A stretch of DNA of 64,000 bases, from NCBI RefSeq assembly GCF_044704955.1, contig NC_091995.1:49910001-49974000 (forward strand), written 5' to 3'. The translations under genes and the position numbers were made by a program. The DNA is from Pristiophorus japonicus (lineage: Eukaryota). Within the stretch, counting starts at the first letter, position 1. Every line of letters starts with the position of its first letter. This document shows positions 459 through 64,000 of this stretch, piece after piece. Under the pieces are notes generated by a model. That model saw nothing but the letters and a program-made list of their open reading frames with translations. It did no database searches and had not been told where the DNA came from.

Positions 459-600
459 GCTCTGACGAAGAGTCATCGACCTGAAACGTTAACTCTGTTT
501 TTCTCTCCACAGAGGGTGCCTGACCCGCTGGGATTTCCAGCATGTTCTGTTTTTATTTCAGATTCCAGCATCGGCAGATTGTTGCTTTTGTATTATCTGT
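459..600 (+). mobile_element. Penelope-like element pseudo-LTR fragment containing a minimal type I hammerhead ribozyme motif
   Basis: CTGACGA (462-468), stem II AGAGTC-ATC-GACCT, GAAA (483-486), CGTT-AAC. It is followed by the tctctccacaga..gcctgacccgctg..tttccagcat..ttctgtttttatttcagattccagcatc repeat, which also sits next to the GIY-YIG fragment at 58820-59334. Confidence 0.7.
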
Positions 601-1064
601 TAGCCGACCCGCGACGCCGGTTTATACCAGGGACGACAGATTTAAAACTACCCCACGATGTGTCTGGGGGAACAGGGATAAGCAAACCAGCCGCCCCATT
701 GTTTTTTTGCGCCAAGCTGGACATTCGTTTCCGTTGAAGTGAAAGGAAATGAAAATCGGGCGGATTTAATTGCGGCCACCATTCGGAAAAGCCCATTTTT
801 GGTCTGGTGGAAAGTTGGAAATCCAACCATGTCACCCACTGCAGCATTTTCTTTCTTTTGAAGAAACTCAGAATAAATTAGCGACGTGCATCCATAATGA
901 AATGTATCTTTTCTAGAATTACTCGCCTTACCTGCTAAATTGGGAGAAATAGAGAGAGAGATTTGACTGATGAGAAAACTTTCCATAATTTCAAACTAAG
1001 ACCTGTCGACGGATCATCCTGTCAGAGTAAGGAGAGTTAGTAATTTAATTTCCTCTTTTTGCAG

Positions 1065-9602: not shown

Positions 9603-10333
9603 GGAATGACCTCAGCCTCAGGATTCTGTACCTTTACTTTAGGAGTGCAGATTTCTAAATATTTCATTTTAAACTGTGATCACTGTAATATTCTTGACTT
9701 TTTTTTGAAGGTGAAATGTCCTGCTCACTAACCATGGGTGGAAATATGGCTCGGCTTAATCTATTTGTTCAAATGACTTCAACTGTTAAGAATTGTGCAA
9801 TTCTCTTTTATCACTTGAGCTTTCTCTCAGGTCTTAATTGGACGTCATTTGATAAGCAGAATATCTGTGTGTCCATAAAACTGAAAGAGAGCATCGCTTC
9901 TCCCCCAAAATAGGATAGCCGATAATAATCATGCAGGGAGAAAGCATACACTGATGTATTATTCTAAGAATTGGTGTTCAGAATAATCCGCTTAGGTTCA
10001 GTTAATATTCACCTTTAGCAATATTTCACTGCATCACTGCTCCTGCTGTCGGTGTAATAATCTTATCTCTTTGATTTGCAGACCTCTTTGATGTGCAGAC
10101 AATAATTACCGCCAACAAATAAATAACAATTAAGAAAATTCAAAGTTTCCAACATATTCCTCATGTAATAACCGGATGGACAGCACAATTTGTTCTGAAG
10201 TTTTAAATTAAGCAGGTTAGAGGGGATTTCGTCGCATTTGTAGATAGCTTTGTAATTTTCTTTCAGAGCCAAGTATTTGTATCGCAGCTTGGTTCTGGTT
10301 GGTTAATATTATTGCGAATATTCAGAGATGATC

Positions 10334-11690
10334 CGAGTCTGAGAACGGTAGAGTTCGAGAGTGGGTGGTCCGAGGGTGCGGAGAGTCCGAGAGTTTGGCA
10401 GAGTCCGAGAGTTCGGGAGAGTCGGAGAGCTCAGCGGCAGAGTCCGAGAGATCGGGAGAGTCGGAGAGTTCATGTGAGTCCAGGAGAGTTGGAGAGCTTG
10501 GGTGAGTCTGAGTGTTCGGGAGAGTCGAGAGTTTGGGAGAGTCCGAGAGCTCGGCGGCAGAGTCCAAGAGATCGGGAGAGTCGGAGAGTTCATGTGAGTC
10601 CGGGAGAGTTGGAGAGCTCGGGTGAGTCTGAGTGTTCGGGAGAGTCGGACACTTCGGGAGAGCGGTAGAGTCCAATAGTTCGGGAGAGTGGGGGAGTCTG
10701 AGAGTTTGGGAGAGTGGGAGATTCCGAGAGAGCGGGAGAGTCCAAGAGTTCGGGAGAGTGGGAGAGTCCAAGAGTTTGGGGAGAGTCCGAGAGAGCGGGA
10801 GAGTCCAGGAGAGCGGGAGAGTCCGAGAGTTTGGGGAGAGTCCGAGAGTTCAGGAGAGCCTGAAAGTTTGGGGGGAGACCGAGAACGGGAGCGTACAAGA
10901 GTTCGGGGAGAGTCCAAGAGTTCGATTCCGAGAGCAGGAGATCGGAGAGTTCGGGGAGAGTCTGAAAGTTCGGGGAGAGTGGGAGAGTCCAAGAGGTTGG
11001 GGAGAGTCCAAGAGGTTGGGGAGAGTCCAAGAGTTTGGAGGAGTCCGAGAGCGGGAGAGTTCGGGGAGAATCCGAGATGCCGGGGAGCGTCCGAGAGTCT
11101 GAGAGAGTCCGAGAGTTCGGGGGTCTTTGAGAGTTCGGGGGAGTCCGAAAGCGGGAGAGTCCGAGAGCGAGAGAGTCCAAGAGTTCGGGGAGAGTCCGAG
11201 AGTTCGGGGAGAGTCCGAGAGTTCAGGGAGAGTCCGAGAAATTGAGAGTTCTGGGAGAGTCCGAGAGTGGGAGAGGCTGAGAGAGTCCGAGAGTTCAGGG
11301 GAGTCAGAGAGCCGGAGAGTCCGAGAGAATCCAAGAGTTCAGGGGGAGTCCGAGAGCGGGAGAGTCCATCAGCTCGGGAGAATCTGAGAGTTCGGGAGAG
11401 TTTGTGAGTTCGGAAGACTTTGTGTAGTTCGGGAGAGTGGGAGAGTCAGTGAGTTCGAGTCCAGAGCGGGAGAGTCCGAGTACAAAGTGGGAGAGTCCTA
11501 GAGCTGGAGAGTCCGAGAGTTCGGGAGGTCCGTGAGCTCGGGCGACTTTGAGTTCAGAAGAGTGAGAGTGGGAGAGTCCGTGAGTTCGAGTACAGAGTGG
11601 GAGAGTCCGAGAGCTGGAGAATCCGAGAGTTCGGGGAGAGTCCGAGAGTTCAGGGAGAGTCCGTGAGTTCGAGTCCGAGAGCGGGAGAAT
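10334..11690 (+). repeat. Purine-rich tandem repeat (9-10/19-20 bp units, e.g. GAGAGTTCGG-GAGAGTCC) with a 120-bp higher-order duplication
   Basis: Directly visible. The sequence at 10441-10500 recurs almost identically at 10561-10620. Confidence 0.95.
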
Positions 11691-13180
11691 CTGATAGCAC
11701 GTTTCAGGAGGTGGTCACCCCGCAGCTTAAAAGTGTGCAGGCAGAGGGGAAGTGGGTGAACACCAGATGAAGTAAAAATGCCAGGCAGGTAGTGCAGGAG
11801 TCCCCTCATGAATCCATCTTGCTTTCAAACCAATATTCGCTTCTGAGCATCGGTGAAGGCGATGGTGCCTCTGGGGAGTGCAGCCAGAGCCAGTTCCGGG
11901 GGGGGGTGCGGCGGAGCGACGAAGAATAAAAGGGCTCCAATGATAGGGGATTCTATAGTTAGGGGAACAAAGATGCGTGTCTGCGGCCGCAGACATGACT
12001 GCAAAATAATATGGTGCCTCCGTGGCACCAGGGTCGAGGATGTCACAGAATGGACGCAGGGCATTCTGGGGGGAGAGGGTAAACAGCTAGAGGTCGTGGT
12101 CCATATTGGGACCAATGACATAGGTAGAAGTAGAGACGAGGTTCTACAGGCAGAAGTTAGGGAGTTAGGAAGAAAATTAAAGGATAGAACCTCAAAGGTA
12201 GTACTCTCCGGGTTACTATCTGTGCCACGTGCTAATCAGTACAAGAATAGAAGGACCGAGAGGATGAACATGTGGCTGGAGAGTTGGTGTAGGAGGGAGG
12301 GCTTTAAATTCTTGAGGCATTGGGACCGCTTCTGGTGGAGATGGGATCTGTACTAACCAGACGGATTGCACCTCAACAGCAGTGGGACCAATATCCTCAC
12401 AGGGAGTTTTGCTCGTGCTGCTGGGGAGAGTTTAAACTAGCTTGGCAGGTGGATGGGAACCTGAGAACATATTCAATAGGGAAGGAAGTAAAGCAGAGAT
12501 TGGATAGCAAGAATTTAGAAAGTGAATCTGTAAGTCAGAGGAAACAAGGGTTAGTAAGTAGTAATCAAGGAGGTCTTCCTGTGTTAAATGGTATCAACAT
12601 TAATGTAAGTGGCATAGCAAATAAGGCGGATAAGCTAAGAGCACAGGTAGATACTTGGGAGTATGACATTATAGCCATTACAGAGACAGGGCTGAAAGAG
12701 GGGCAGGTTTGGCACATCAATATCCCTGGTTATAAGATATTTAGACAAGACAGAGAGGTCTAAAGGGGTGGGGGGTCACGGTATTGATTAAATAAACTAT
12801 TACAGTGGTGAGGAGGGATAATATGTTAGAGGGATCATCAAATCAGACCATTTGCGTCAAATTGAAAAATAAAAGAGGGCGATCACACAGCTGTGCATGT
12901 ATTATAGACCCCCAAATAGTGGCAGGGAAACAGAGGAGCAATAATTTAGGCAAATTGGTGTGAAGTCCAAAAATCATAGGGTAGTAATAGTCGGAGATTT
13001 TAATTATCCTAATATTGATTGAAACAAATATAATGTGAAGGGTATAGAGAAAGCAGAATTCTTAAAATGCATTCAAGAGAAATGTATTAGTCAGTATGTA
13101 ACAAACCCCACACGAGAGAGGGCGGTTTTGGTTTTAGTTTTGGGGAATGAAGCTGCGCAGGTAGAATGGGTATTAGTGGG

Positions 13181-14130: not shown

Positions 14131-17100
14131 TCAGCCCCGTTTAGTCAATTTACCCTTGTCAACACAGAGAGGAATATCTTGACCAGTCAGGAGCATCCAA
14201 TAAGTGTTTCCTTCTCCTTTTGCTAAGATTTTCCCTGCTTGTAAGGGTTTCTGGGGGTATTGCACCCACACTTTTCCTCCTTCACAAACTGTGTCCTGAG
14301 TCCGATTTCCTTTTTCAAAAGTAGGGATACTAACTTTGCCTAACATGTGGCTTATGGGGGTTCCCCCCCGCAATGGTCGGTGATTCAGATTGCGCACTGC
14401 TTGTAGTAAGACCTTTAACCACCCTTGCAATGTGTTAGTGGGAATTAATATTTTAATCTGTTGCTTAAGTAGTCCATTCATGCGTTCTATCAACCCTGCA
14501 GCTTGTGGATAGTAAGGTATGTGAAACCTCCAATAGATCCCGTTGTCTACCACCCATTGTTGCACTGTTTGACCTGTGGAGTGCGACCCATTATTGGACT
14601 GTACTTCTGCTGGCTCACCGTAATATGTGATTAAATTCTCCAGTCCTTTAATCGTACTTTGTTGACTCGCTTTAGTCACTGGGTAAGCTATCAAAAGTCC
14701 AGAATAGGTATCAACAGCAGTGAGCAAATATTGGAACCAGTGTTGCAATGGTAAAGGTCCTACATAATCAACTTGCCATATTTGTCCTGGTTGAATCCCT
14801 CTCTTAGGGCCCAAGTTTTGGGCCGCGCCTAGAACGGTGCAGCCCAGACCTGGACGCCCGTTTTTTGTGCCACAAAGTGCGCCTAAAAAAAAACTCACCT
14901 CTTCTCCGGCTCCCTGCAGGTCCTCTGGAGCTGGGCGCAGCGCAGCATGAGCTGTTGGGGACGGAGCCAGGTCCCGGCGCTGAAAACAGTGCCGAGACCT
15001 CTGCACATGCGCGTTACAGTCGGCATGCATGTGCAGTAGCTTCAGGCGCCCACAACTGTGGGAGGGGCCCGAAGCACACAGCCCCTAGCCCTGGCCGAAT
15101 GGCCTCACTGGGGCTGCGTGGATAAGGCTCACCTCCCACGTCCAGCTCCCTCCCGACCAGACCCGACTTGACTCCCGCCCCCCCGGACCCGACCCGACCT
15201 GACCTACTATCTCCCCCCACCAACCTCTGCTCCCTGCACCCCCCCCACCCCCCGGTGACCCGACCTCCGCTCCCCCCACCGGCGACCCGACCTCTGCTCC
15301 CCACCCCACCCCCCGGCGACCCGACCTCCCCCCCCCCCCCCGGACCGGACCGGACCCGACCCCCGCTCCCCCAGACCCGACACCCGCTCCCCCCCCCCGC
15401 CGGCAACCCAACCTCCGCTTCCCCCCCCCAGCTACCCGACCTCCGCTCCCCCCCCCACCCCAACCTCTGCGACTCTTTCCCCCCCCGATCTCCGCGACTC
15501 ACCTCCGCGACTCTTTCCCCCCCCTGCCCCCCCAACCTCCGCGACTCCTCCCCACCCCCACCGCGACCTCCGCGACTCCCCCACCCCCGACCTCCGCGAC
15601 TCCCCCCCTGGACCCGGGACCCGACACCCGACGCCACCTACCTGTAAATCCAGCCCGAAGTCTTGGGCCCGGCCCGTTCAGCCTCCTTCTCCCTCCCTGC
15701 CTCCTACCCCCCACTCTTCTCCTCCTCCTCCTCCCCATCTCCTCCTTCTTCTCCTCCCCATCTCCTCCTTCTCCCCCCACTCTCCTCCTTCTTCTCCCTC
15801 CCTCCCCTCTCCTCCCCCTCTACCTCCCTCCTCCCCCCTCTACCTCCCTCCTCCCCCACCCCCCTCCCCTCGCTGTCAGAAACATAGACACTGACAGACA
15901 GAGAGTGAGAGACACACAGACAGGCAGAGAGATAGAGACACTGACAGCGACACACTGGGGAGGCCGTCCCAGCACACTGTTGGAGAGCTCCCAGTGCTGC
16001 AGTCGGTAAGTAGAAAATGTTTTATTTATTGATTTTTTAATTAAAAATTGTTTTATTAATTTTTTTTTGATTGATTTTTTGGTTGATTTATTGATGAATT
16101 TATCATTTATTATTGATGATGGCTCTTTATTTGTAAAACTGAAGTGTTTAATGTTTGTAAACTTCCCTTTAAACCGCGCCCCCCCCATTCCCTACGCCTG
16201 ATTTGTAACCTATGCCTGATTTTCTAAAGTGTAGGCAAGGTTTTTCTGAGCGTACAAAAATCTTCACTTACTCCATTCTAAGTTAGTTTAGAGTAAGTTT
16301 TCACTGCCTAAACTTTCAAAACGAGTGTAAGTGGCCGGACACGCCCCCTTTTGAAAAAAGAAATCTGTTCCAAACTGACCAGAACTGGAGCAAACTAAAT
16401 GCCGAGAATTCAAATTTCTAAGATACTCCATTCTGGACCAGTTGCTCCAAAAAAACAGGAGCAACTCAGGCCGAAACTTAGCCCCATAATATGGTCATTG
16501 TAGGGGAAAATGCTTCACCTTTTGACAAATTTCAGAGGTGTTTATGATCTGTTTTGAAATGTAACCCCCTATTTCGTGCCCATTGTATCATACCTCGAAT
16601 GCCCAAATGTCCAGATTTGTGGTGGGCCCATTTGCCTAAGCCATATTCTTCCTCTTCTGCCTCTTTGACAGCCCATGCCCGGATTATATTATCAACGGTG
16701 TTATTATATTCAGAGGTCTTTGAAGTGTTTTTCATGTGAGCGTTCACATGATATACAGTTATTTTCATCTTCTGGGCTTTGGACCATATTTGTTCCCATA
16801 GTTGCTTTCCCCACAAGTCTTTCCCAGTTATTTGCCAGTTATGTTTATGCCAGTTTCACATCCAGCTCGCCATGCCATTGGCTACCGCCCATGAGTCAGT
16901 ATATATGTGTACTTGTTGCTGTTCCTTTTCTAACGCAAGGACGACAGCTGCTAGTTCTGCTAGCTGGCTGAAGCCTCCCATGCCCTCATCATGCACAATG
17001 GTCTGGGTTTTTGGATGGAAGGCAGCAGCTCGCCATCGCTGAAGGCCATTTTGCCAGACCGCTGAGCCATCTGTGAACCAGGCATGGCTACGCTCTTCAG

Positions 17101-17533
17101 GTGTTAACTGTTCAAAAGACATGCCCCAGGAGATTGGTGACTCCTGGGTTAAACTGACAGATGACTGTGTAAGTTCACTCTCAGCTGTTTGTGGGTATTC
17201 AGCCACATGCTCATGTAGTTGGGTGATTCCTTCTATTCCTTTACTTGCTATGTCTACGATATTCCATCTCCAGCGCACTATGGAGCTTTGCTGCACTCGC
17301 CCAACCTTGTGTGTCTCATTGACCAGGCCGATTACCGCATACCACTCCGCACCTTCTTCAGACAGCCGCTGTGTTATAGTTACTACATCTGGGACAGCGG
17401 TTGCCAGGGGAGGGGCAAATTTGTTCAGTTTTCGATAGTCCACAGTCATCCTCCAACTTTCGTCGGGTTTCTGCACAGGCCAAGCAGGACTATTGTAGGG
17501 GGACACCGCATGTCTAATGATACCCGCCCCCAA
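14131..17533 (-). pseudogene. pol: pol remnant: RT N-terminus, connection/RNase H, integrase (interrupted by a Harbinger-like element)
   Basis: RT stops at WYAVI and joins directly to the connection domain, so no YxDD. RNase H motifs present. Integrase WAHHKSGHLG at ~16600-16630, core at 14131-14806 with the second Asp altered (VQSNNGSH). Confidence 0.88.
14807..16485. mobile_element. Non-autonomous PIF/Harbinger-like DNA transposon with internal C-rich minisatellite, inserted in the ERV integrase
   Basis: Imperfect TIRs GGGCCCAAGTTT / AAACTTAGCCCC with flanks TTA (14804-14806) and ATA (16486-16488). Excision restores the integrase reading HIKRGIQPGQIWQVDY. cccgacc-type repeats at 15150-15870. 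Confidence 0.8.
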
Positions 17534-17790
17534 GAGCCCTTGTATGGTTTTCTGTATAAGGTCTGAAGACTTCCCACATACAGGACAACACTACGAAGGG
17601 TTAAAAAAACCTTCACTCTGTTTGAAAAAGTGGTTGGAGCTAAAACAAACAGGCAGCTCCACTATTTTTCCAAACAGGCTTTCAGACACGTGAAAAATTC
17701 ATTCTGCAGTCAAAACATGACAAAAGCGCTTTCATTCACAGACAGACATTCACAAAGTCTTTCTTCATTCAACAAAGCTTATTATGTTTA

Positions 17791-17809
17791 CTCCCCTGCC
17801 AGGTAAGTA
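17791..17809 (-). ncRNA. U1 snRNA 5'-end fragment (19 nt exact, not a functional gene) embedded in the provirus
   Basis: Minus strand TACTTACCTGGCAGGGGAG equals nt 2-20 of vertebrate U1, followed by weak further similarity (TAAACATAAT vs ATACCATGAT). Confidence 0.6.
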
Positions 17810-18900
17810 ATCGGAATGTATGGCCTCAGATCCCCAGGAGATTAGGTTGATGTGGTTCTAACTGGGAGTGCTCCCGGATCCCGGGCACACCCCGAGTCGA
17901 GGGGATCTTCTACATCCTCGAACATGTCCTAACAATAGGCAGGCGTGCCCCACCTGCTGCCCTTGGGCTGGTCCCAATAATGCGAGTAGTGCACCCTCAT
18001 CATAGGAGGGCCACTCTTCATCAGGCTGCTCCACATTCCTGTCGTAAAGAGCTCCTGATCTGGCCCACCAAATTGTTGGTGATATATTCCTCCCTGTGTT
18101 GCCATGTTGTGCAACTGTATTGCACCCTCCGCCACAGTATTCCAAGGTTTTACCTCCCCTTCCCAATCAACGGCAGAGGGATATTTTTGCCAGAGCCCGA
18201 TAGTAACCAATTCTTGTAACTCACTAGTGGTGAAGTCATACATCCCTCTAGTGGTTACCGGCTGTTCCCCATCTTGCTGTTTCGTCTTATTTGTCATAAG
18301 GGGTCTAGCTTCTGTGCTTGGAGCGTATGGGGGAGGGTCTTTAGTTTCCTTCCGTTCCCCCCCCCCTCCATTTTTTCCAGCTTGTATACATTCCCCACAT
18401 GACTTTGCATGGGCTTTTAAATACTCACTGGGATCGGATTGAGCAAGCCCATACCACATTCAGCAGCAAATACAAAATATATATTTCAAATCCAGCTGTA
18501 ATTTCCGTCGTCTAGCTTTCTTTTTATTTTGTACTGTCGGCAGACGGCATATTAAAGTTTCTGATCGTTCATTGACCTTGTCCGCCAGCTCTTGTGCAGT
18601 GCAGACCACTTCAGTCAGGGTCAAGTTTTGACTTTCCAAAACCTTAACAGCTGTTTTTAACTGTAGGTTTTCTTCCTCACTTTCCTTCAGTTGTTTACAC
18701 ATCGCCCTTAGGGTATCAACAAAATCCATCCCATTTGTGGGGGACTATTTTTCTCCTGTGGGAAGCCTGCTTCCTCCAGGAGAGACAGTACCGCGTGGGG
18801 TATAGTTCTATCTTTGTTCTGTTCCAATAACGGCGTATCCCCATGTTGCGGGAGTCCAAATCAGGCTAGCACCTTGGCAAGAGAGCCAAAACCCTCATCC
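17810..18900 (-). pseudogene. gag: gag remnant (coiled-coil N-terminus, PPPY late-domain motif, capsid fragment)
   Basis: Lies immediately 3' of the PBS. Fragments LKESEEENLQLKTAVKVLE, DPPPYAPS, YDFTTSELQEL and WNTVAEGAIQLHNMA; frameshifted. Confidence 0.75.
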
Positions 18901-25945: not shown

Positions 25946-28549
25946 ATGGTTGGTTATTATAATTTAGTAAATACAGGGTAATTTGAAGAATATGATTAAC
26001 CGACCCATGGCTCAAATAACGGATTCACCGAATTTAAAAAAAAAGCACAATGAGAATTTTAACTTTAGAAAATAGTGCAAAAGACGCCTTATGGAATTAC
26101 ACGTCCATTATGCTCCTCACTCTATTTTCCCTTCCATTGACTTCAATGCAAAGAGCAATCAGGCGAGATGCACAAAGTGAGCGAATTCGGTATCGTTCAT
26201 TTTACACAATCGCCCAAAGTTAAAATTAATCAATTCCATCCCTCAACTATAAGAGATGTACTTCAATAGAAATGATATGTGCACACAGGAATCTCCCGTC
26301 GAATTGCTCACACTCAGTGGAAGCATCTGCCCGGAGCTTCGTTTTTCCGAGTTCGCCAGTCTGGTTTCGTCTTCAATTAAAATTAATACATGGGGAAGAG
26401 AAGCGGGGAGCGCTCACACTGAAGACCCCGGCAGTACTATTTGGAACTACAAATGGGGTATTCTCAGTAAGAAGCAATTCAATACTGTCACGGCCCCTGA
26501 TTTAAGATAAGTGAGTAAGTTATTTTCTATTACATGACAGGCTTCCCCTGCTATTCAGATCCCCAGGGGAATGGGTGAGCTTAGACACTGGCCAATGATG
26601 GCAGCGTTCTGACGTTCAGTAATGATGGGACACGATATTTAGGTACAGTGAATCGGATCTCGGGTCCAGGATTAAATGACAGCAGTTGTGCAGTAGGTGT
26701 GCTGAGATTCTGAAGCACAAAGTACTTGGCCGCGGGTTCTGCAGCGTTGCAACAGCGGGTCTGAGGTGAATTAACACTGAGTGATGCGAGGTGGGGGGTT
26801 CGGTTTAGGCCGCACTGGGAATTGGGTATTGCGAGAATCAGCCCCTGGTGAAGCCTTTCCTTTGGCAGCACCGCAGAGGCAGAACATACACTCTGGTGGT
26901 AATCGGGACTGGAATGTGATTTCTGGCGGGGGGAGGAGGTGGAAGTGTCTGAGCCCATGGGTGGGAGTGGGAGGATCCCAGGATCTGGCAGCACTTCGGT
27001 TGTTGGCCATGGTGTGAAATGAATTGTCTCGGAAATCTCTCTGTAGATTCTGAAGTCAGCGATTATCATTGCTTCTTTGAAAATGCCGAGTTTTTATGAT
27101 GTTAACAACAAATAACTGCTTAAACAGACAAATATTGGATAAATACATCATCGCTCAACGTCTCATTTTATTTCAAAGATTCAATTGAAAACATTTATTA
27201 ACATTAAAGAACTGTACAGACAATCGTCATGTAAAAATGATAAACTGAACAATGTAAGGGACTGCTTTAAACAGGGAATTTTCCCTGAGCCAGATTATAT
27301 ATTTTTTACCAAATAAGACAAGGTGAAAATATCTTCATGATCAATTAACTTCAGAAATGTTTTTGCATTGATTTTGTTTCAACTAATGTGAAATAAATTA
27401 ATGAATTATACACAGGGTAAAATACACTTCAATAGATTTAGAATAGACTCACCAGGCTGGAAATTGACGGGTTGATCGACCGCGTGTTTCCTGCCCCACC
27501 TGAGTATAATGGAGTATAATGGGGCGGCCTGTCCCACCCCGTCACTTCACCACTGGGCATGTTGTGTTAGAATTAATTAAATATTAAAATATCAAATTTG
27601 AATGGGAACAAAGGCACAGTTGGTGCAATCATTTCATTGGGCGTTCGTAATTATTTTATCATTCCTACTATGATGCGAGAATATGGGAATAAAATGCCAC
27701 AGCTGATGACACATGGGCTTATCCCGAAGAGCTAAGTTAACATTGCTGCCAGTGTAAAATGGACGGTAATGAATTGCCATCTCATTAGGCGTCACAGCTG
27801 ATTTATATTCCATCCACATCAATGAAATTCAAAGAAGGAGCTCCCTGCTGTTGCTCCTGCCTGGAAGGCCTTTGTGAGCCCTGTGAAACAGCCCAGGAAG
27901 AGGAGGAAGGGGCTTACTACAATTCCAATTCATCCAGAGGGAGAGGAGGAGAGCAGAAAATACAATGAAATTCAAAAGCGGGAGTCGTGTGTAATGGGCG
28001 ATAATTCGATATCCCCCATTTAACTCTGTCCCCAGAAGTTAAAATTACCCCAAGGTCTTAATTGGGTGAATTTCGCTTAGGTGGAATTGAAACACAGACA
28101 AAAGATAATTGGCTACCCGGTTTATATTCTGCCCCATTTCTTGTTCCTTGACTTCAATGAAAGCTAAAATCTGTGGGTATAAAAGGAGCAGCGGATCCTG
28201 TTTCCGCCCGTAAATGGTCATTCAAACAATTGGCCATTTGTTGTAGGTTTAAATCTCCATTTCATTTATCGCTTATCTCCGATAATTACCAGAGTATCTG
28301 TTTGAAGAGTAAGCAGTGTAACCTGACTAAGAACAGATTGGGTTTATTTAGCTCGATTGGTGGCCTGAAAGACATCCGGAAGCAAAAATGTTTCACCTGC
28401 CTCCTAGCTCAAGATCAGAAGTAATTCCTCAACAGGAGTTATTTCCTGTGAACGTAATTTCAGCTGTTCAGCAAGAAAAAGCTTCGATAATTTTGTAACA
28501 AATACCTTTAAACTGCCAAACAGTACTAGCAGACCATTATTATGAGTTA

Positions 28550-29031
28550 GGTGGTACTGCCATGCAAAATCAATCTTCTATAGCTTTCTAACTTGGGGAG
28601 CATTTTTGTTGTTGGACACCATTTTTTCCCTGTTGGTTCCATTAATTTTGATTTTATTGCTCAATGTTCTGACCATTAGACTAGCTGTACTAGGCAATAG
28701 AATGAGAAGGAGTCTCCATGGGAACAACAATGGTGAGAATCACATTGATACAGAGATGGAGAACCAAAGAAAATCTATCATTTTACTTCTGTTCACCTCT
28801 TGTAGCTTTATACTTTTATGGAGGGACATTATCCTATATTATATAATTGTGCAATTTATATTAAGAGAACAATTATTGTGTTCCTCTCACCATTATGGAA
28901 AAAAATGGATAGTACAAGTCGAATTACAGTTCTTCCACGGACAGGTTTGTTTATCAGTGTCCCAGTGGAAATTCAGAGATGCATTGAAGAATATGATTAA
29001 TTACCCTTGGTTGCAACTTTCAGCCAATTAA
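28550..29031 (+). pseudogene. Diverged GPR139-like GPCR fragment (ECL2 to C-terminus)
   Basis: WYCHAKSIFYS..LILLLNVLTIR..NRMRRSLHGNNNGENHIDTEMENQRKSIILLL..SFILLW..KFRDALKNMI. TM7 is scrambled by indels. Confidence 0.88.
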
Positions 29032-58350: not shown

Positions 58351-58819
58351 CAGCCGTTCTGGAAAGAAACCACACGGAGTCATGGATAGGCTATGATATG
58401 AGAACATGTTTTAGCTCACAAATGTCCAAACTTCTCGTCATGCCTTGGGATTACAACGGCTTATTAAAAACATAGCTACAGCATCCATTCAAAGGTCATT
58501 CTTATTTACACGTGATGAAATAATCTCTGGTTCTCATCACATCAGCACATTAAGCAATCCTATTATTCCCTTAAGCCACCTTGTCTGATCCAGGTAGGAC
58601 ACAGCCAGCCCCGAATTCTCCACTCGTGAGATTATCCAGGGATCCGATTGGACTCTCGCGGGTCTTGAATTCATTACTTTCAAGGTTCTCTTACAGCTTC
58701 ACTGATGTCCTGGTGATATTGACTGGGCCTGAAAACATATATAGGTCAGATCTATATGACATATGGATTCATTGGTACCTCCTTCTCTGATTGCCGTGAT
58801 GTAACTATGGGCACGAGGG

Positions 58820-61800
58820 TAAAACCCGAAAATGCTGGATATCTCAGCATCTGTGGAGAGGAAGCAAAGTTAACATTTTGGGTCGATGACCCTTTGTCAG
58901 AACTGGAGAATGTTTGGAAAGAACATATTCTTAATGAGCACTGAAAGGGGATGGGAAGAAATAACAAAAGAGAATGTCTGTGATATGTTGGAAGACAGGA
59001 GAGATTAGGGAGACAAAAGGGATGTTGGCAAAAATTCAACTGGTATTGCCAGGTGTTTGGAAATCATTAGTTAACATAGAATGTGAATAGTGGGATAATG
59101 ACCAACTGCCATTAGAGACAAGGAAAAAAAAAAAGAAAGTAACAGTCTCTGATGTCGTGGGTGGGGGGTGGGAGTGGAGGAAAGGGAGCCAAAGATTGAC
59201 AGGCGACCAGAAGCTCAGGGTGACACTTGCAGATTGAACAGAGGTGCTCCGCAAAGCGGTCACCCAATCTACACTTGCTGTCCCCAATGTAGAGGAGGTC
59301 ACAATGTGAGCAGCGAATACAATATATTAAATTGAGGCTTGGTTGGGGGCAGGCATTGGGAGGGTCAGTGCCCCACTGGAGTTCAGAATGGGAGGTCAGG
59401 GAGGTCACAGCTATGATGCTCACCACTTGCTGGAGGAGGAGAAGAGGCCAGGCCACCTCTGGGGAAGGAGAGGTCCAGCCGTCATTGAGGAGGCCCAGAA
59501 GCCGTCATGGAGGAGAGGCCCTGAATGCCATTGGATGGGTGGAGGCCTGTCGCTGGAGGGGTGATGGCCAGTCGCTGGACGGATGAAAGGACGGCCCCTG
59601 GAGGGGTAAACAGGCCCCTAACCAAGTCTCGGATCACCTACCATCAAGGGCGTTACTCAGCGCCGAGCTTGCAGTCAACATCTTGCTGTAGGCAACTAGG
59701 CTCATACAGCAGTGCCTGGTCTCCAGTCGTCTTGGACCCCCTTGCCACTGGATTAAGATCTTGCTCAGCTAAGCCTGTGTGTTAGCCAGTGTGCAACGAC
59801 CACCCAACATTAAAAGAACTCAGACACAGGCACATCCACTCCTCCAACATGAAGTTCAGGACATGGAACGTCAGGACCTTCCAACAGCGACAGACCAGAA
59901 AGCCACACCGCCATAGTTGCCTGGGAACTTAGACAGTTCGATATTGACATCGCCGCCCTAAGCGAGACCCGACGGGCAGGGGAAGGCCAGCTCAAGGAAC
60001 AAGGTGGAGGTTACACCTTCTTCTGGAAAGGGAATCCAGAGGCAGAATGCTGCCTTCATGGATTCGGCTTCTCCATCAATAACGAGCTGGTCAACTACCT
60101 CAAAGACTCCTCCTGCGGGGCTAATGAACGCCTCATGACTCTTCGACTCATTCAATCCCAGAATGAATGCACAACAGTCATCAATGCATACGCCCCAACA
60201 TTCGATGCATCAGATGAGACCAAAGAGGGTTTCTACTCCAACCTCAAAAAATCCCTGAACCGCGTCCCCGCGGATGACAAACTCATCCTCCTCGGTGACT
60301 TCAAAGCCAGGGTTGGCAATGACACAGCCCTCTGGGGAGGCGTGATTGGCAGTGAGGGGGTAGGGAAAGCCAACTCCAATGGTACCCTACTCCCGACAAA
60401 ATGTCTACAACATGAATTTGTCATCACCAACACCTTGCCCTGCTAGAGGGACAAATACAAGTCATCGTGGCAACACCCTCGCTCAAAACGCTGGCACCTG
60501 CTCGACTATGTCATCATCCGACCAGTGATCACAATGATATGCGTATCACCCAAGCCATGAGAGGAGCTGGCGACTGCTGGATGGACCACCGCCTAATTTG
60601 ATGCGTCATTGACATCAACATAGTTCCCAAGTGGAGGGGGCAGCAGAAGCAGTGCCACAAAAAAGTCAATGCCGGAGCATTTAAACCCAGCTAAGAAAGC
60701 CCTATACAGTCAGCACCTCACAGCTAACCATACGTGCGCTGATGACCCCGAGATGCAGAATGCCCACAGCACTTGGTCTGCCCTTCAGGCCTCCATAACC
60801 AGAGCCTGCAAAGAGATGCTCGGTCATTCAACCAGGAAGCACCAGGATTGGTTTGATGAGCATGATCAGGAGAATGAAGAGCTAATAGATCGCAAGAGCG
60901 GGGCATTTCTGAGCCTTAAACAACCCAACTCAGGAGCAGCAAAGCAGCATTACAGACGGCTCAAGGCTGAGGCCCAACAAAAGCCCGGGACCTAAAGAAT
61001 AGGTGGTGGATGGAGAAAGCACAGGAGATACATCAGCTGGCCGCCAGTCATGATGTGCGAGGATTCTTCATCACAGTCAAGGCCACCTACGGTCCAAACA
61101 CCCAAGGCTCCATCCCACTGCTGGCTGAGAATGGGGAAACACTCATCAAGGACACTGAGGCAGTCAGGACCTGCTGGAAGGAACACTTCGAAGAGCTCCT
61201 CAGTCGAGACTCTGCCTTTGACTCGAGTGTTCTCGACTCCATCCCGCAGCATACTATCTGCCACCACCTCACTATAATCCTAAAACTGCACGAGGTAGAA
61301 AAAGCCACAAAACAGCTTAAAAACAACAAGGCTATGGGAGCGGACGGAATCCCTGCGGAGGCACTGAAGTACGGTGGAGAGGCACTACTGGCGTGAATAA
61401 ATGACCTCATCTCTCTCATCTGGAGAGAGGACAGCATGCCGGGAGATCTCAGAGATGCAGTGATCGTGACTATCTTTAAAAAAGAGGACAAGTCCGACTG
61501 TGGCAACTACGGAGGAAGCTCCCTATCAGGCACAGGGAAAGTCGTCGCTAGAGTTGTCCTCAGCCATCTTCTCCCTGTGGCAGAGGAGCTGCTTCTGGAG
61601 TCACAGTGCAAATTTCATTCCCTATGGAGCACAACGGACATGATTTTTGCAGTGCGACAGTTGCAGGAAAAATGCAGGGAGAGCACCAGCCCTTAAACAT
61701 GGCCTTCTTCGACCTCACAAGGGTCTTTGACATTGTCAACTGCGAGGGTCTATTGAGTGTCCTCCTCGTTTTCGGGTGTCCCTAAAAAAACTTCACCATC

Positions 61801-62905
61801 CTCCACCTGCTCCTCGATAACGTGCATGCTGTGATCCTTAACAATGAATCCATCACAGACCCAATCCATGTCTGGACCGGGGTCAAGCGGGTCTGCGTCA
61901 TCGCCTCAACCCTCTTCTCAATCTTCCTGGCTGTCATGCTCCAACTCACAGTCGAAAAGCTCCCCGCTGGAGTGGCACTAAACTATGGAACCAGTGAGAA
62001 CCTATTCAAACTTCGCCATCTCCAGGCCAGGTCCAAAACCATGCCAACCTCTGTCATTAGCTACAGTACGCGGATGATGCCTGCGTCTGCGCACATACAG
62101 AGGCTAAACTCCAGGACATAGTCGACATATCTATAAAAGCATGGGCATTACACTAAACATCAGTAAGACAAAGGTCCTCCACCAGCCTGTCCTCACCGCA
62201 CAGTCCTGCACCCCCCAGTCATCAAGATCGACGGCATGGCCCTGGACAATGTGGACCACTTCCCATATTTCGGGAGTCTCCTATCAACAAGGACCATGTA
62301 CAGTAGACACCGCAAGTCACTGGAGAAATACCACCAACGATGCCTCCGCAAGATCCTACAAATCCCCTGGGAGAACAAACACACTAACGTTAGCGCCCTC
62401 AACCAGGCCAACATCCTCAGTATTGAAGCACTGATCACACTGGGTCAGCACCGCTGGGCAGGCTACATATTTCGCATGCCAGACACGAGACTCTCAAAGC
62501 AAGCGCTCTACTCGGAACTCCTTCACGGCAAACGAGCCAAAGGTGGGCAGTGAAAATGTTACAAGGACACCCTCAAAGCCACCCTGATGAACTGGAGGAA
62601 GTTCATCCAGGAGGGTGCTGAGCAACCTGAGTCTCATCGCTGAAAGCATGGAAAAATCAAGCGCAGGCAGTGGAAAGAGCATGCGACAAACCAGTCCCAT
62701 GCACCCGTTTCCTCAACGAGTACTTGTCCCACCTGTGACAGAGACTGTGGTTCTCATATTGGACTGTACAGCCACTAAGGACTCATGTTAAGAGTGGAAG
62801 CATGTCTTCCTCGATTCGAAGGAATGATGATGCTGATGATGATACTAAATTGGATGAATTACAAGTACATTGCTGTTTCACCTGGAAGGAGTATTTGGGG
62901 CCCTG
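58820..62905 (-). mobile_element. Penelope-like element 3' end (GIY-YIG endonuclease + pLTR), split by an RTE into 62842-62905 and 58820-59334
   Basis: QGPKYSFQVKQQCTCNSSNL joined to IYCIRCSHCDLLYIGDSKCRLGDRFAEHL. pLTR with a decayed hammerhead at ~58868-58905. Confidence 0.85.
59335..62841 (+). mobile_element. Near full-length RTE LINE (APE endonuclease + RT, disrupted)
   Basis: MKFRTWNVRT, DIAALSETR, NAYAPT, ILLGDF, GADGIPAE and QHRWAGY motifs; (ATG)n tail. TSD ATA(T/C)TAAATTG at 59324-59334 and 62842-62852. Confidence 0.92.
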
Positions 62906-63675
62906 GGACACAGGAGCATACCTTTTCTTTGATATCATTACCCTCTGCACCACTTGTCACACCACCAGTCTTTAATAGCAATCGACGCACAGACTGGTAA
63001 TCAAGATGAGCACTGAGGCGATGGCAGCTGCCATTCTCCATATCTCCCACCAATTATACTGAAGTTTTCCTGATTGGTGGTGCAACTTAGACCTGTCGCT
63101 GGTGGAGTCCTCCACTGCTTCGGCCGATCCTTTGCCAACTCTACCTGAACCCGTCCCCCAGCGATGATCTGCCGACTTTGACAGATACATCTCATCGCTG
63201 TGGTCAGGGTCTTCTCTACCGCTGCCTGAGTGGTGTGTGTCATCCACATCCAGCTCATCATCCCACCATGGGCTAAAGACCGGGCCGGTAAGGGCTCTAT
63301 CTGCCAGGTGGAAGTCTCCCAAGGTGAAGGAGTCTGAGATTTGGAGACAGAAGGTATAATTATTCACACATATTAATCCTCCATAGAGGTAGTACTTTTT
63401 GTCAGACAGAAGACACAACTGGGTCGGAGATGCTTGTACTGTCCTGGAAGGAATCTCTAGAGGCTCAACTGTTACCACCACTGCAGAGTTATTATCTATA
63501 GGTTTCAGAGCATTGCAGTTACACACTATGTAATGCTGCGATTCGGTGAAGCAATCACCCGTGGTCATAAGGAGTGTGTTATTGGTGCCTGGCTCAGTAT
63601 ACCCATGTGCCCCTACTCGGTAAACCAACTTGTCTCTGATCACTCCCAGAGATTCACATTTATATACCTCTGTAT
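62906..63675 (-). pseudogene. env: C-terminal half of a viral-type envelope glycoprotein (Cys-rich ectodomain, heptad region, Trp-rich segment, TM), candidate F-like env
   Basis: VYKCESLGVIRD..LMTTGDCFTESQHYIVCN..TQLCLLS..CVNNYTFCL. A shifted frame gives QAAVEKTLTTAMRCICQSRQII, then NWWEIWRMAAAIASVLILITSLC. N-glycosylation sequons NNT, NNS, NYT. Confidence 0.6.
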
Positions 63676-64000
63676 ACATAAGAACATACGAACATAAGAA
63701 ATAGAAGCAGGAGTAGGTCTTACAGCCCCTGAAGCCTGCTCCGCCATTCAATAAGATCATGGCTGATCTGATCATGGACTCAGCTCTACTTCCCTGCCTG
63801 CTCCCCATAAACCCTTATTCCCTTATCGTTTAAGAAACTGTCTATTTATGTCTTAAATTTATTCAATGTCCCAACTTCCACAGTTCTCGGAGGCAGTGAA
63901 TTCCACAGATTTACAATCCTCTGAGAGAAGAAATTTCTCCTCATCTCTGTTTTAAATGGGCGGCCCCTTATTCTAAGATCATGCCCTCTAGTTCTAGTCG
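63676..64000 (-). mobile_element. CR1 LINE 3' end (continues beyond the window)
   Basis: Reverse complement of the 3' end seen at 8680-8986; acataaga tail. Confidence 0.9.

Follow-up and report, generated by a model that had tools for sequence, protein, structure and literature searches.

Retroviral envelope (Env) proteins with the core of the paramyxovirus/pneumovirus fusion protein (F) are known from lokiretroviruses and foamy viruses, and, separately, snakehead retrovirus (SnRV)-like endogenous retroviruses (ERVs) are known from sharks. Additional modules are described as N-terminal to the core in the coronavirus spike and as inserted in foamy Env (accessible text of PMC11468914). The elephant shark was already reported to carry SnRV-related ERVs (PMC4422223), and clade Huo is described as spanning all vertebrate groups (PMC6001957); in the accessible portions of these two papers and of PMC4977317, the SnRV-like/clade Huo classes are based on Pol and no F-type Env is described. 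In the literature searched, an incomplete set from which subscription papers are mostly absent and which takes in the accessible text of 10.1101/2023.10.26.564294, 10.1101/2024.03.17.585361, 10.1101/2021.11.23.469661, PMC12583693 and PMC4977317, the combination of an F-type Env with an SnRV-like ERV was not found stated.

The window analyzed here comprises 64,000 nucleotides (C19:49910001–49974000) of the 5.92-Gb Pristiophorus japonicus genome, which was the search space for family copies. One stretch of it is very probably the dead 3′ third of an env gene from a multi-copy ERV that is likely SnRV-like (clade Huo/class III) and has a predicted F-type class I fusogen as its Env. The host is a cartilaginous fish, as for the SnRV-like/clade Huo ERVs that include CmiERV lineage I of the elephant shark (PMC4422223, accessible text).

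The env remnant and its provirus

The env fragment, the 3′ third of the gene, lies within a decayed provirus at 63679–62972 on the minus strand, where a frame of 235 codons opens with ATG and ends at a stop. The features of the locus, in window coordinates and in the order of the minus strand, are:

63680–64000, minus strand: 3′ end of a LINE, presumably of CR1 type, inserted into env and running on past the window end
63242–63679, minus strand: env ectodomain remnant of 146 open codons (Cys-rich F1-like β domains), mapping to residues 498–630 of the teleost homologue P0018
63140–63241, minus strand: membrane-proximal heptad (HRB-like) helix, moved out of frame by two frameshifts (frame analysis)
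62972–63139, minus strand: Trp-rich pre-membrane segment, transmembrane (TM) anchor and premature stop (frame and motif positions)
62900–62971, minus strand: start of the env cytoplasmic tail, carrying a further stop (frame analysis)
62842–62899, minus strand: start of a GIY-YIG element, which we take to be Penelope-like, inserted in the env tail and common to other C19 copies (copy comparison)
59340–62841, plus strand: LINE of 3.5 kb, presumably RTE-type, inserted into the GIY-YIG element and missing from copy L033 (copy comparison)
58830–59335, minus strand: remainder of the GIY-YIG element, ends approximate (copy comparison and domain match)
58582–58820, minus strand: final env codons and the region preceding the 3′ long terminal repeat (LTR) (copy comparison)
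58356–58581, minus strand: remnant of the 3′ LTR, internally deleted in the same way as in the C19 copies (LTR comparison)

The ectodomain piece (146 codons) contains seven cysteines and three N-glycosylation sequons with no interruption, bearing out the uninterrupted Cys-rich glycosylated ectodomain described in the initial annotation, which was made from the sequence alone. The segment TTGDCFTESQHYIVC, at 63565–63521 (minus strand) within this piece, had been likened to the DxxxC spacing of F1; the segment is present, but its literal spacing is D-C-x9-C. The heptad-like helix that was proposed to follow is also present, although outside the main frame, displaced by frameshifts near 63240 and near 63140 between which ~34 codons are out of frame. 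NWWEIW (63055–63038) and the hydrophobic anchor (from 63034, with a mean Kyte-Doolittle value of 2.19 over 19 residues) are both at the positions claimed for them and are followed by the premature stop at 62974–62972 (all minus strand). Neither CX6CC nor a QNR motif was found in the window env peptide, in agreement with the reported absence of CX6CC and of an immunosuppressive motif. The window peptide aligns with the intact 744-residue teleost protein P0018 at 37% identity over 135 residues (pairwise E 9e-29).

The fusion peptide and pol had been expected just past position 64,000. Inspection of that sequence instead revealed LINEs, which we take to be CR1-type, the 3′ part of pol and the 5′ part of env being deleted. 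Beyond these LINEs, 4–10 kb past the window (loci L031/L032), lie the start of the reverse transcriptase (RT), the protease, gag and the 5′ LTR; the RT start, which LINE insertions precede, ends abruptly at the catalytic motif. The window copy is thus without the 3′ half of pol, integrase included, and without the 5′ two thirds of env. Its gag encodes coiled-coil repeats and zinc knuckles; a 14-residue coiled-coil repeat, EEIVEQLATREEDK, is expanded in the N-terminal part (L031:8399–9208, minus strand). The continuation of the GIY-YIG element matches the GIY-YIG domain at E 0.0025, below the curated cut-off.

The window family is an endogenous retrovirus, as its LTRs, primer binding site, target duplications and gag-pro-RT...env order show. 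The LTRs are ~640 bp long with TG...CA ends, and a search for them gave 1001 candidates, 40 of them scored. The primer site corresponds to the 3′ end of tRNA-Ser(AGA) in all four loci read, among 1028 pattern matches, and 5-bp target duplications match in two of the three dispersed LTR pairs examined; those of the window copy itself do not match. The tRNA-Ser 3′ motif (1028 matches genome-wide) also forms long tandem arrays with a period of ~1.95 kb at ~11.7–20.5 Mb of C23.

Other features of the window include a second decayed and unrelated ERV at 14131–18459 (minus strand), with RNase H and integrase matches, whose RT start resembles the HERV-L/MuERV-L rows in the accessible part of the lokiretrovirus paper's alignment; the available text of PMC4977317 describes such ERV-L-like elements chiefly from tetrapods. 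Positions 10200–11700 hold a low-complexity, strongly G-skewed tandem repeat with overlapping long frames.

Homologues and predicted fold of the Env

Searched against 1.84 billion representatives, the upstream env frame matched 16 proteins, among which those named are from catshark, white shark, loggerhead turtle, zebrafish, dace and goldfish; a second homologue search yielded 43 proteins, of which all those named are teleost and several are intact at 700–750 residues. Relatives of pol were found in Mustelus and Heterodontus. The closest env and pol homologues are shark sequences, consistent with a shark host, as had been proposed for the fusogen from the letters of the window. Unannotated env-like proteins from ERVs of teleosts, sharks and turtles (such as XP_077104191.1, XP_072343881.1 and CAM2111711.1) have 26–43% identity across the stretches that match and the same cysteine pattern; many of the teleost members are intact (700–750 residues), whereas all scored copies of the shark family are broken. 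In the alignment, the teleost proteins carry R-x-K/R-R followed by a D/G-x-x-G-x-x-G-L-F-G-S-x-N-S segment, and all four shark copies read have a degenerate basic site at the point of cleavage. The furin site is preceded by 294–325 residues in each of the eight long homologues and by ~316 codons in shark copy L037. CX6CC is absent beyond residue 330 in all eight long homologues and, judged by these sequences, the Env of the window family is not gamma-type. The Env of SnRV was not among the homologues listed from the sequence searches. No stretch of the env alignment was conserved enough for an IMG/VR scan, and an IMG/VR scan for SnRV-like RT gave one weak match.

Profile methods gave no match to fusion proteins. 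No F or Env family of Pfam was found in three window frames, 13 element pieces, 13 homologues and the env of a related young family (see below); PDB sequence searches gave no match to Fusion_gly, Baculo_F or any Env; and the env alignment profile matched only the TM regions of opioid receptors, at E of at least 0.017. The 146-residue window peptide alone gave no usable match in Atlas, a language-model search.

Structural comparison employed two AlphaFold2 models, both of intact teleost homologues (P0018, 744 residues, and a protein of 474 residues) and not of the shark protein. The mean pLDDT values for the two models are 46.6 and 53.7, the segment homologous to the window belongs to the least confident parts, and the head region of the 744-residue model is below 50. 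With P0018, all 21 Foldseek matches listed at E ≤ 0.001 (of 24) are paramyxovirus/pneumovirus F proteins (best E 2.1e-6; TM-scores ~0.2–0.3), and the three further ones are extra chains of entries already listed. The 50 VIA matches listed for P0018 are likewise all F proteins (best Z 8.5, rmsd 5.7, 234 aligned), with model residues ~250–685 laid colinearly on F residues ~30–517; the segment homologous to the window (498–630) falls inside the range aligned to F proteins (252–685). A Foldseek-free VIA comparison of the 474-residue model with 48,161 chains placed foamy Env first (Z 8.0, rmsd 5.1, 126 aligned) and Newcastle disease virus (NDV) F second (Z 6.6, rmsd 4.3, 129 aligned), with unrelated coiled coils below (Z 5.1–5.5), the matches being confined to the N-terminal 215 residues; Z values of 6–8.5 lie close to what common arrangements attain. 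For the full-length (744-residue) model, the matches listed do not include foamy Env. In BFVD, the seven matches at E ≤ 0.001 comprise baculovirus F, several negative-strand virus glycoproteins and respiratory syncytial virus (RSV) F, and SnRV Env was not among the 50 matches listed. The Atlas neighbors are Gypsy-env, Baculo_F and Fusion_gly clusters at 0.93–0.95, each family label being carried by under half of the cluster members.

These comparisons predict that the Env is, by its core fold, an F-type (subclass Ib) class I fusogen. The fold predicted for its homologues would bear out the F-like (paramyxovirus/pneumovirus) env initially proposed, with no PF00523 match; of the profile and structure comparison suggested at that stage, the structural part gave matches to F, with homologue models of low confidence, and the Pfam part gave none. 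In the models, the F2 strand and helix, fusion peptide, HRA, β domains, HRB and TM segment would be alike in order and fold to those of the paramyxovirus/pneumovirus F proteins (RSV, hPIV3, NDV and Nipah) and the baculovirus/errantivirus F proteins, from which the Env differs in its ~10–12% identity, an extra head and retroviral coding. That the Env is not truly homologous to F, and that long helices and weak models account for the matches, is very unlikely: the low pLDDT values and TM-scores, the Z of 5.1–5.5 reached by unrelated coiled coils in the wide search and the missing profile match all fit such an account, but two models, three libraries and the language-model search agree on F-type proteins, and the aligned ranges are colinear across the whole ectodomain.

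Since the predicted F core starts at approximately residue 250, an extra head of ~250 residues lies ahead of it, which likely serves in receptor binding. The ancestral Env would have comprised, in order, a signal peptide, the ~250-residue head, an F2-like strand and helix, the furin-type R-x-K/R-R site, a fusion peptide, a long HRA helix, the Cys-rich β domains, an HRB helix, the Trp-rich segment and the TM anchor. By analogy with the F proteins of RSV and measles virus, after cleavage and triggering it would refold to an HRA/HRB six-helix bundle and so merge membranes. As a separate observation, the Envs of walleye epsilonretroviruses appear weakly in the BFVD comparison (WEHV1, E 0.007, rank 18; WDSV, E 0.029, rank 26), hinting that they may have an F core too.

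Retroviral affinity of the family

The best RT matches in the PDB are to foamy Pol (103.6 bits), followed by MLV (87) and HIV (46–49). In the accessible part of the lokiretrovirus paper's supplement, YTWTRLPQG occurs three times, each time in SnRV rows, and CPFG and NSPAEF occur 77 and 57 times, in lokiretrovirus rows wherever shown. Among the 15 RT rows checked none has PFG or NSPAEF and seven have LPQG/MPQG..NSP.IF; the other eight, the decayed RT of the window included, are broken or not caught by the pattern. By hand count, the RT of copy L020 is identical to that of SnRV at 68 of 154 positions (~44%) with no gap, and over its first 130 positions has 46% identity to SnRV versus ~38% to one lokiretrovirus RT. 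The RT motifs place the family among retroviruses proper, and the RT is likely closest in class to that of SnRV, by motifs and hand count and at motif level, not tree level. SnRV has an RT colinear with that of the window family, YTWTRLPQG and P.VAS in common with it, and the same LTR-gag-pol-env order.

The lokiretrovirus-type label first given to the env does not hold. A lokiretrovirus, which would be the first from a cartilaginous fish, has in its favor that an F-like Env with an R-x-K-R site, fusion peptide, coiled coil and TM segment is the lokiretrovirus hallmark in the accessible text of PMC7947760, that C-x9-C spacing with HY also occurs in the lokiretrovirus Env rows available there, and that the related pol has a dual RNase H (tether plus RH); a relation to Mononegavirales F is a further likeness. 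We nevertheless consider this highly improbable. CPFG/NSPAEF are missing from all 15 RT rows, of which the seven readable ones have LPQG/MPQG..NSP.IF; the best PDB matches of the RT are foamy, then MLV; and the Env has 294–325 residues before the furin site (8/8 homologues), compared with ~100 in the lokiretrovirus Envs available. The ~250-residue head, a different fusion-peptide sequence and the lack of a PF00523 match set the family further apart. Lokiretroviruses are also characterized by an RT that is sister to those of all other retroviruses, by an integrase related to CGIN1 and, in some members, by an smc gene. In the parts of the lokiretrovirus material available, GLFGS and CCHET occur 0 times in the supplement, and the six cartilaginous-fish genomes checked in the table of PMC7947760 carry no lokiretrovirus mark.

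A foamy-like ERV (clade Tu/FLERV), whose Env is known to contain an F core, is also very unlikely, even though foamy Pol heads the PDB RT matches and foamy Env (8rm0) the VIA matches of the core model. No SnRV RT is among the PDB matches, so that foamy is simply the nearest solved RT, and the motifs and gap-free colinearity favor SnRV over the FLERV and foamy rows. The Gag of the window family has zinc knuckles, whereas we know of no zinc knuckles in foamy Gag. Foamy Env (8rm0/8rm1) is a retroviral Env on a paramyxovirus/pneumovirus F core, as predicted here from the model comparison, but according to the accessible text of PMC11468914 its additional module lies between the subunits. The module of the window family is N-terminal to the predicted core, like that of the coronavirus spike.

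Copies, decay and a young relative family

The 146-residue env piece has 82 matches in its own genome (121 candidates, all scored), which merge by eye into ~45 places, ~15 of them in C19:45–52.2 Mb. No scored match has an open frame longer than 337 residues, compared with 700–750 for an intact Env, and among the 44 genome matches of the fusion-peptide region the maximum is 297 residues. The intact or domesticated copies that the initial annotation had envisaged are thus missing from the scored matches of the window family. Among 30 loci compared, 12 C19 loci have one 5′ env junction in common; the 3′ flank and junction are common to the four C19 copies read, and the window copy and one other C19 copy share 3.5 kb of flank at 84%. 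Because of these common junctions and flanks, the C19 copies are regarded as segmental duplicates of one already defective insertion. A single-exon, apparently intact rhodopsin-family GPCR gene is present in the window at 1049–1999 and a fragment at 28546–29031 (both plus strand), and the duplicated block with the ERV copies at C19:45–52 Mb is possibly a cluster of GPCR genes.

Mismatches by codon position (1/2/3) between the window env and 13 dispersed copies number 193/217/228, the third-position excess not being significant in any single one of the 13; against 12 C19 siblings, which are not independent, they number 148/182/208 (lowest single p 0.058). A divergent sublineage has 33/28/67, which points to past purifying selection on env. 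Together the counts suggest purifying selection on env for as long as the virus was replicating, and decay thereafter. On this sequence evidence, the window env copy is dead, neutrally decaying and not domesticated, and likely has no function today. Domestication of the 235-codon frame, or of another copy, as a fusogen or restriction factor might be argued from the opening ATG and terminal TM segment of that frame and from the retention of ~15 copies in one region beside GPCR genes; it is extremely improbable, given that the window copy has neither signal peptide nor fusion peptide and has ~34 codons out of frame, that substitutions are near even over codon positions, that breaks differ among sibling copies and that the longest scored frame (337 residues) falls far short of an intact Env.

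Dispersed LTR pairs with matching target duplications have K2P distances of 0.042 and 0.063, and a third pair 0.065 over 224 bp. The dispersed insertions would be roughly 95–145 million years old, a figure wholly dependent on the shark rate of 2.2e-10 per site per year assumed in PMC4422223 (accessible text). Dating by the LTRs of the window copy itself (K2P 0.149 over 178 bp; 0.153–0.163 for three siblings) was set aside because the 3′ LTR carries a deletion and the target duplications do not match. The history would have begun with germline infection, followed by loss of 3′ pol and 5′ env, insertion of the GIY-YIG element, segmental duplication to ~15 copies on one chromosome arm and further LINE insertions in the window copy.

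The RT search also gave a second family, with ~57–63% identity, which accounts for 143 of 150 scored matches. All three of its loci read have a pol frame of 1179–1181 residues and an env frame of 741–750 codons, and the parts of gag covered are open. Its env has 19% identity to that of the window family (hhalign probability 97%, E 8e-11). The env search gave 16,399 candidates, of which the 150 scored are all 99–100% identical; a frame of 737 codons or more is present in 12 of these 150, and shorter frames of 344 or 567–570 recur in most. The recurrence of these truncations suggests that defective lineages have been amplified. In the one LTR pair compared, 675 of 675 bases agree. This high-copy family is SnRV-like, distantly related to that of the window, has intact genes and appears to have spread through the genome very recently. 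Intact F-like envs, proposed to exist elsewhere, are thus found in this genome, although in this distant family (19% identity) and not in that of the window. Of the three criteria for invading ERVs in the accessible text of PMC10435555, whose pipeline required a tm motif in Env, two apply to the young family.

As a dead fragment the window copy is unremarkable; the more testable lead is the young family, since it offers intact proteins for structural work and insertion polymorphism that can be scored. It is possible, though we hold it with slightly less than even confidence, that SnRV-like (clade Huo) retroviruses in sharks, teleosts and turtles normally enter cells by means of head-bearing F-type Envs, which, taken with the lokiretrovirus and foamy Envs, would make the F fold the likely ancestral retroviral Env, and that the young cousin of the window family is still invading the shark germline with thousands of near-identical copies. 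If so, the F fold would have been missed by screens based on gamma-type TM motifs; the family is invisible to both Pfam and gamma-type Env screens, and such ERVs may therefore be under-counted. A third retroviral branch with an F core, its module placed before the core, would bear on the question of the ancestral envelope and, through the placement of that module, on how receptor-binding modules were added.
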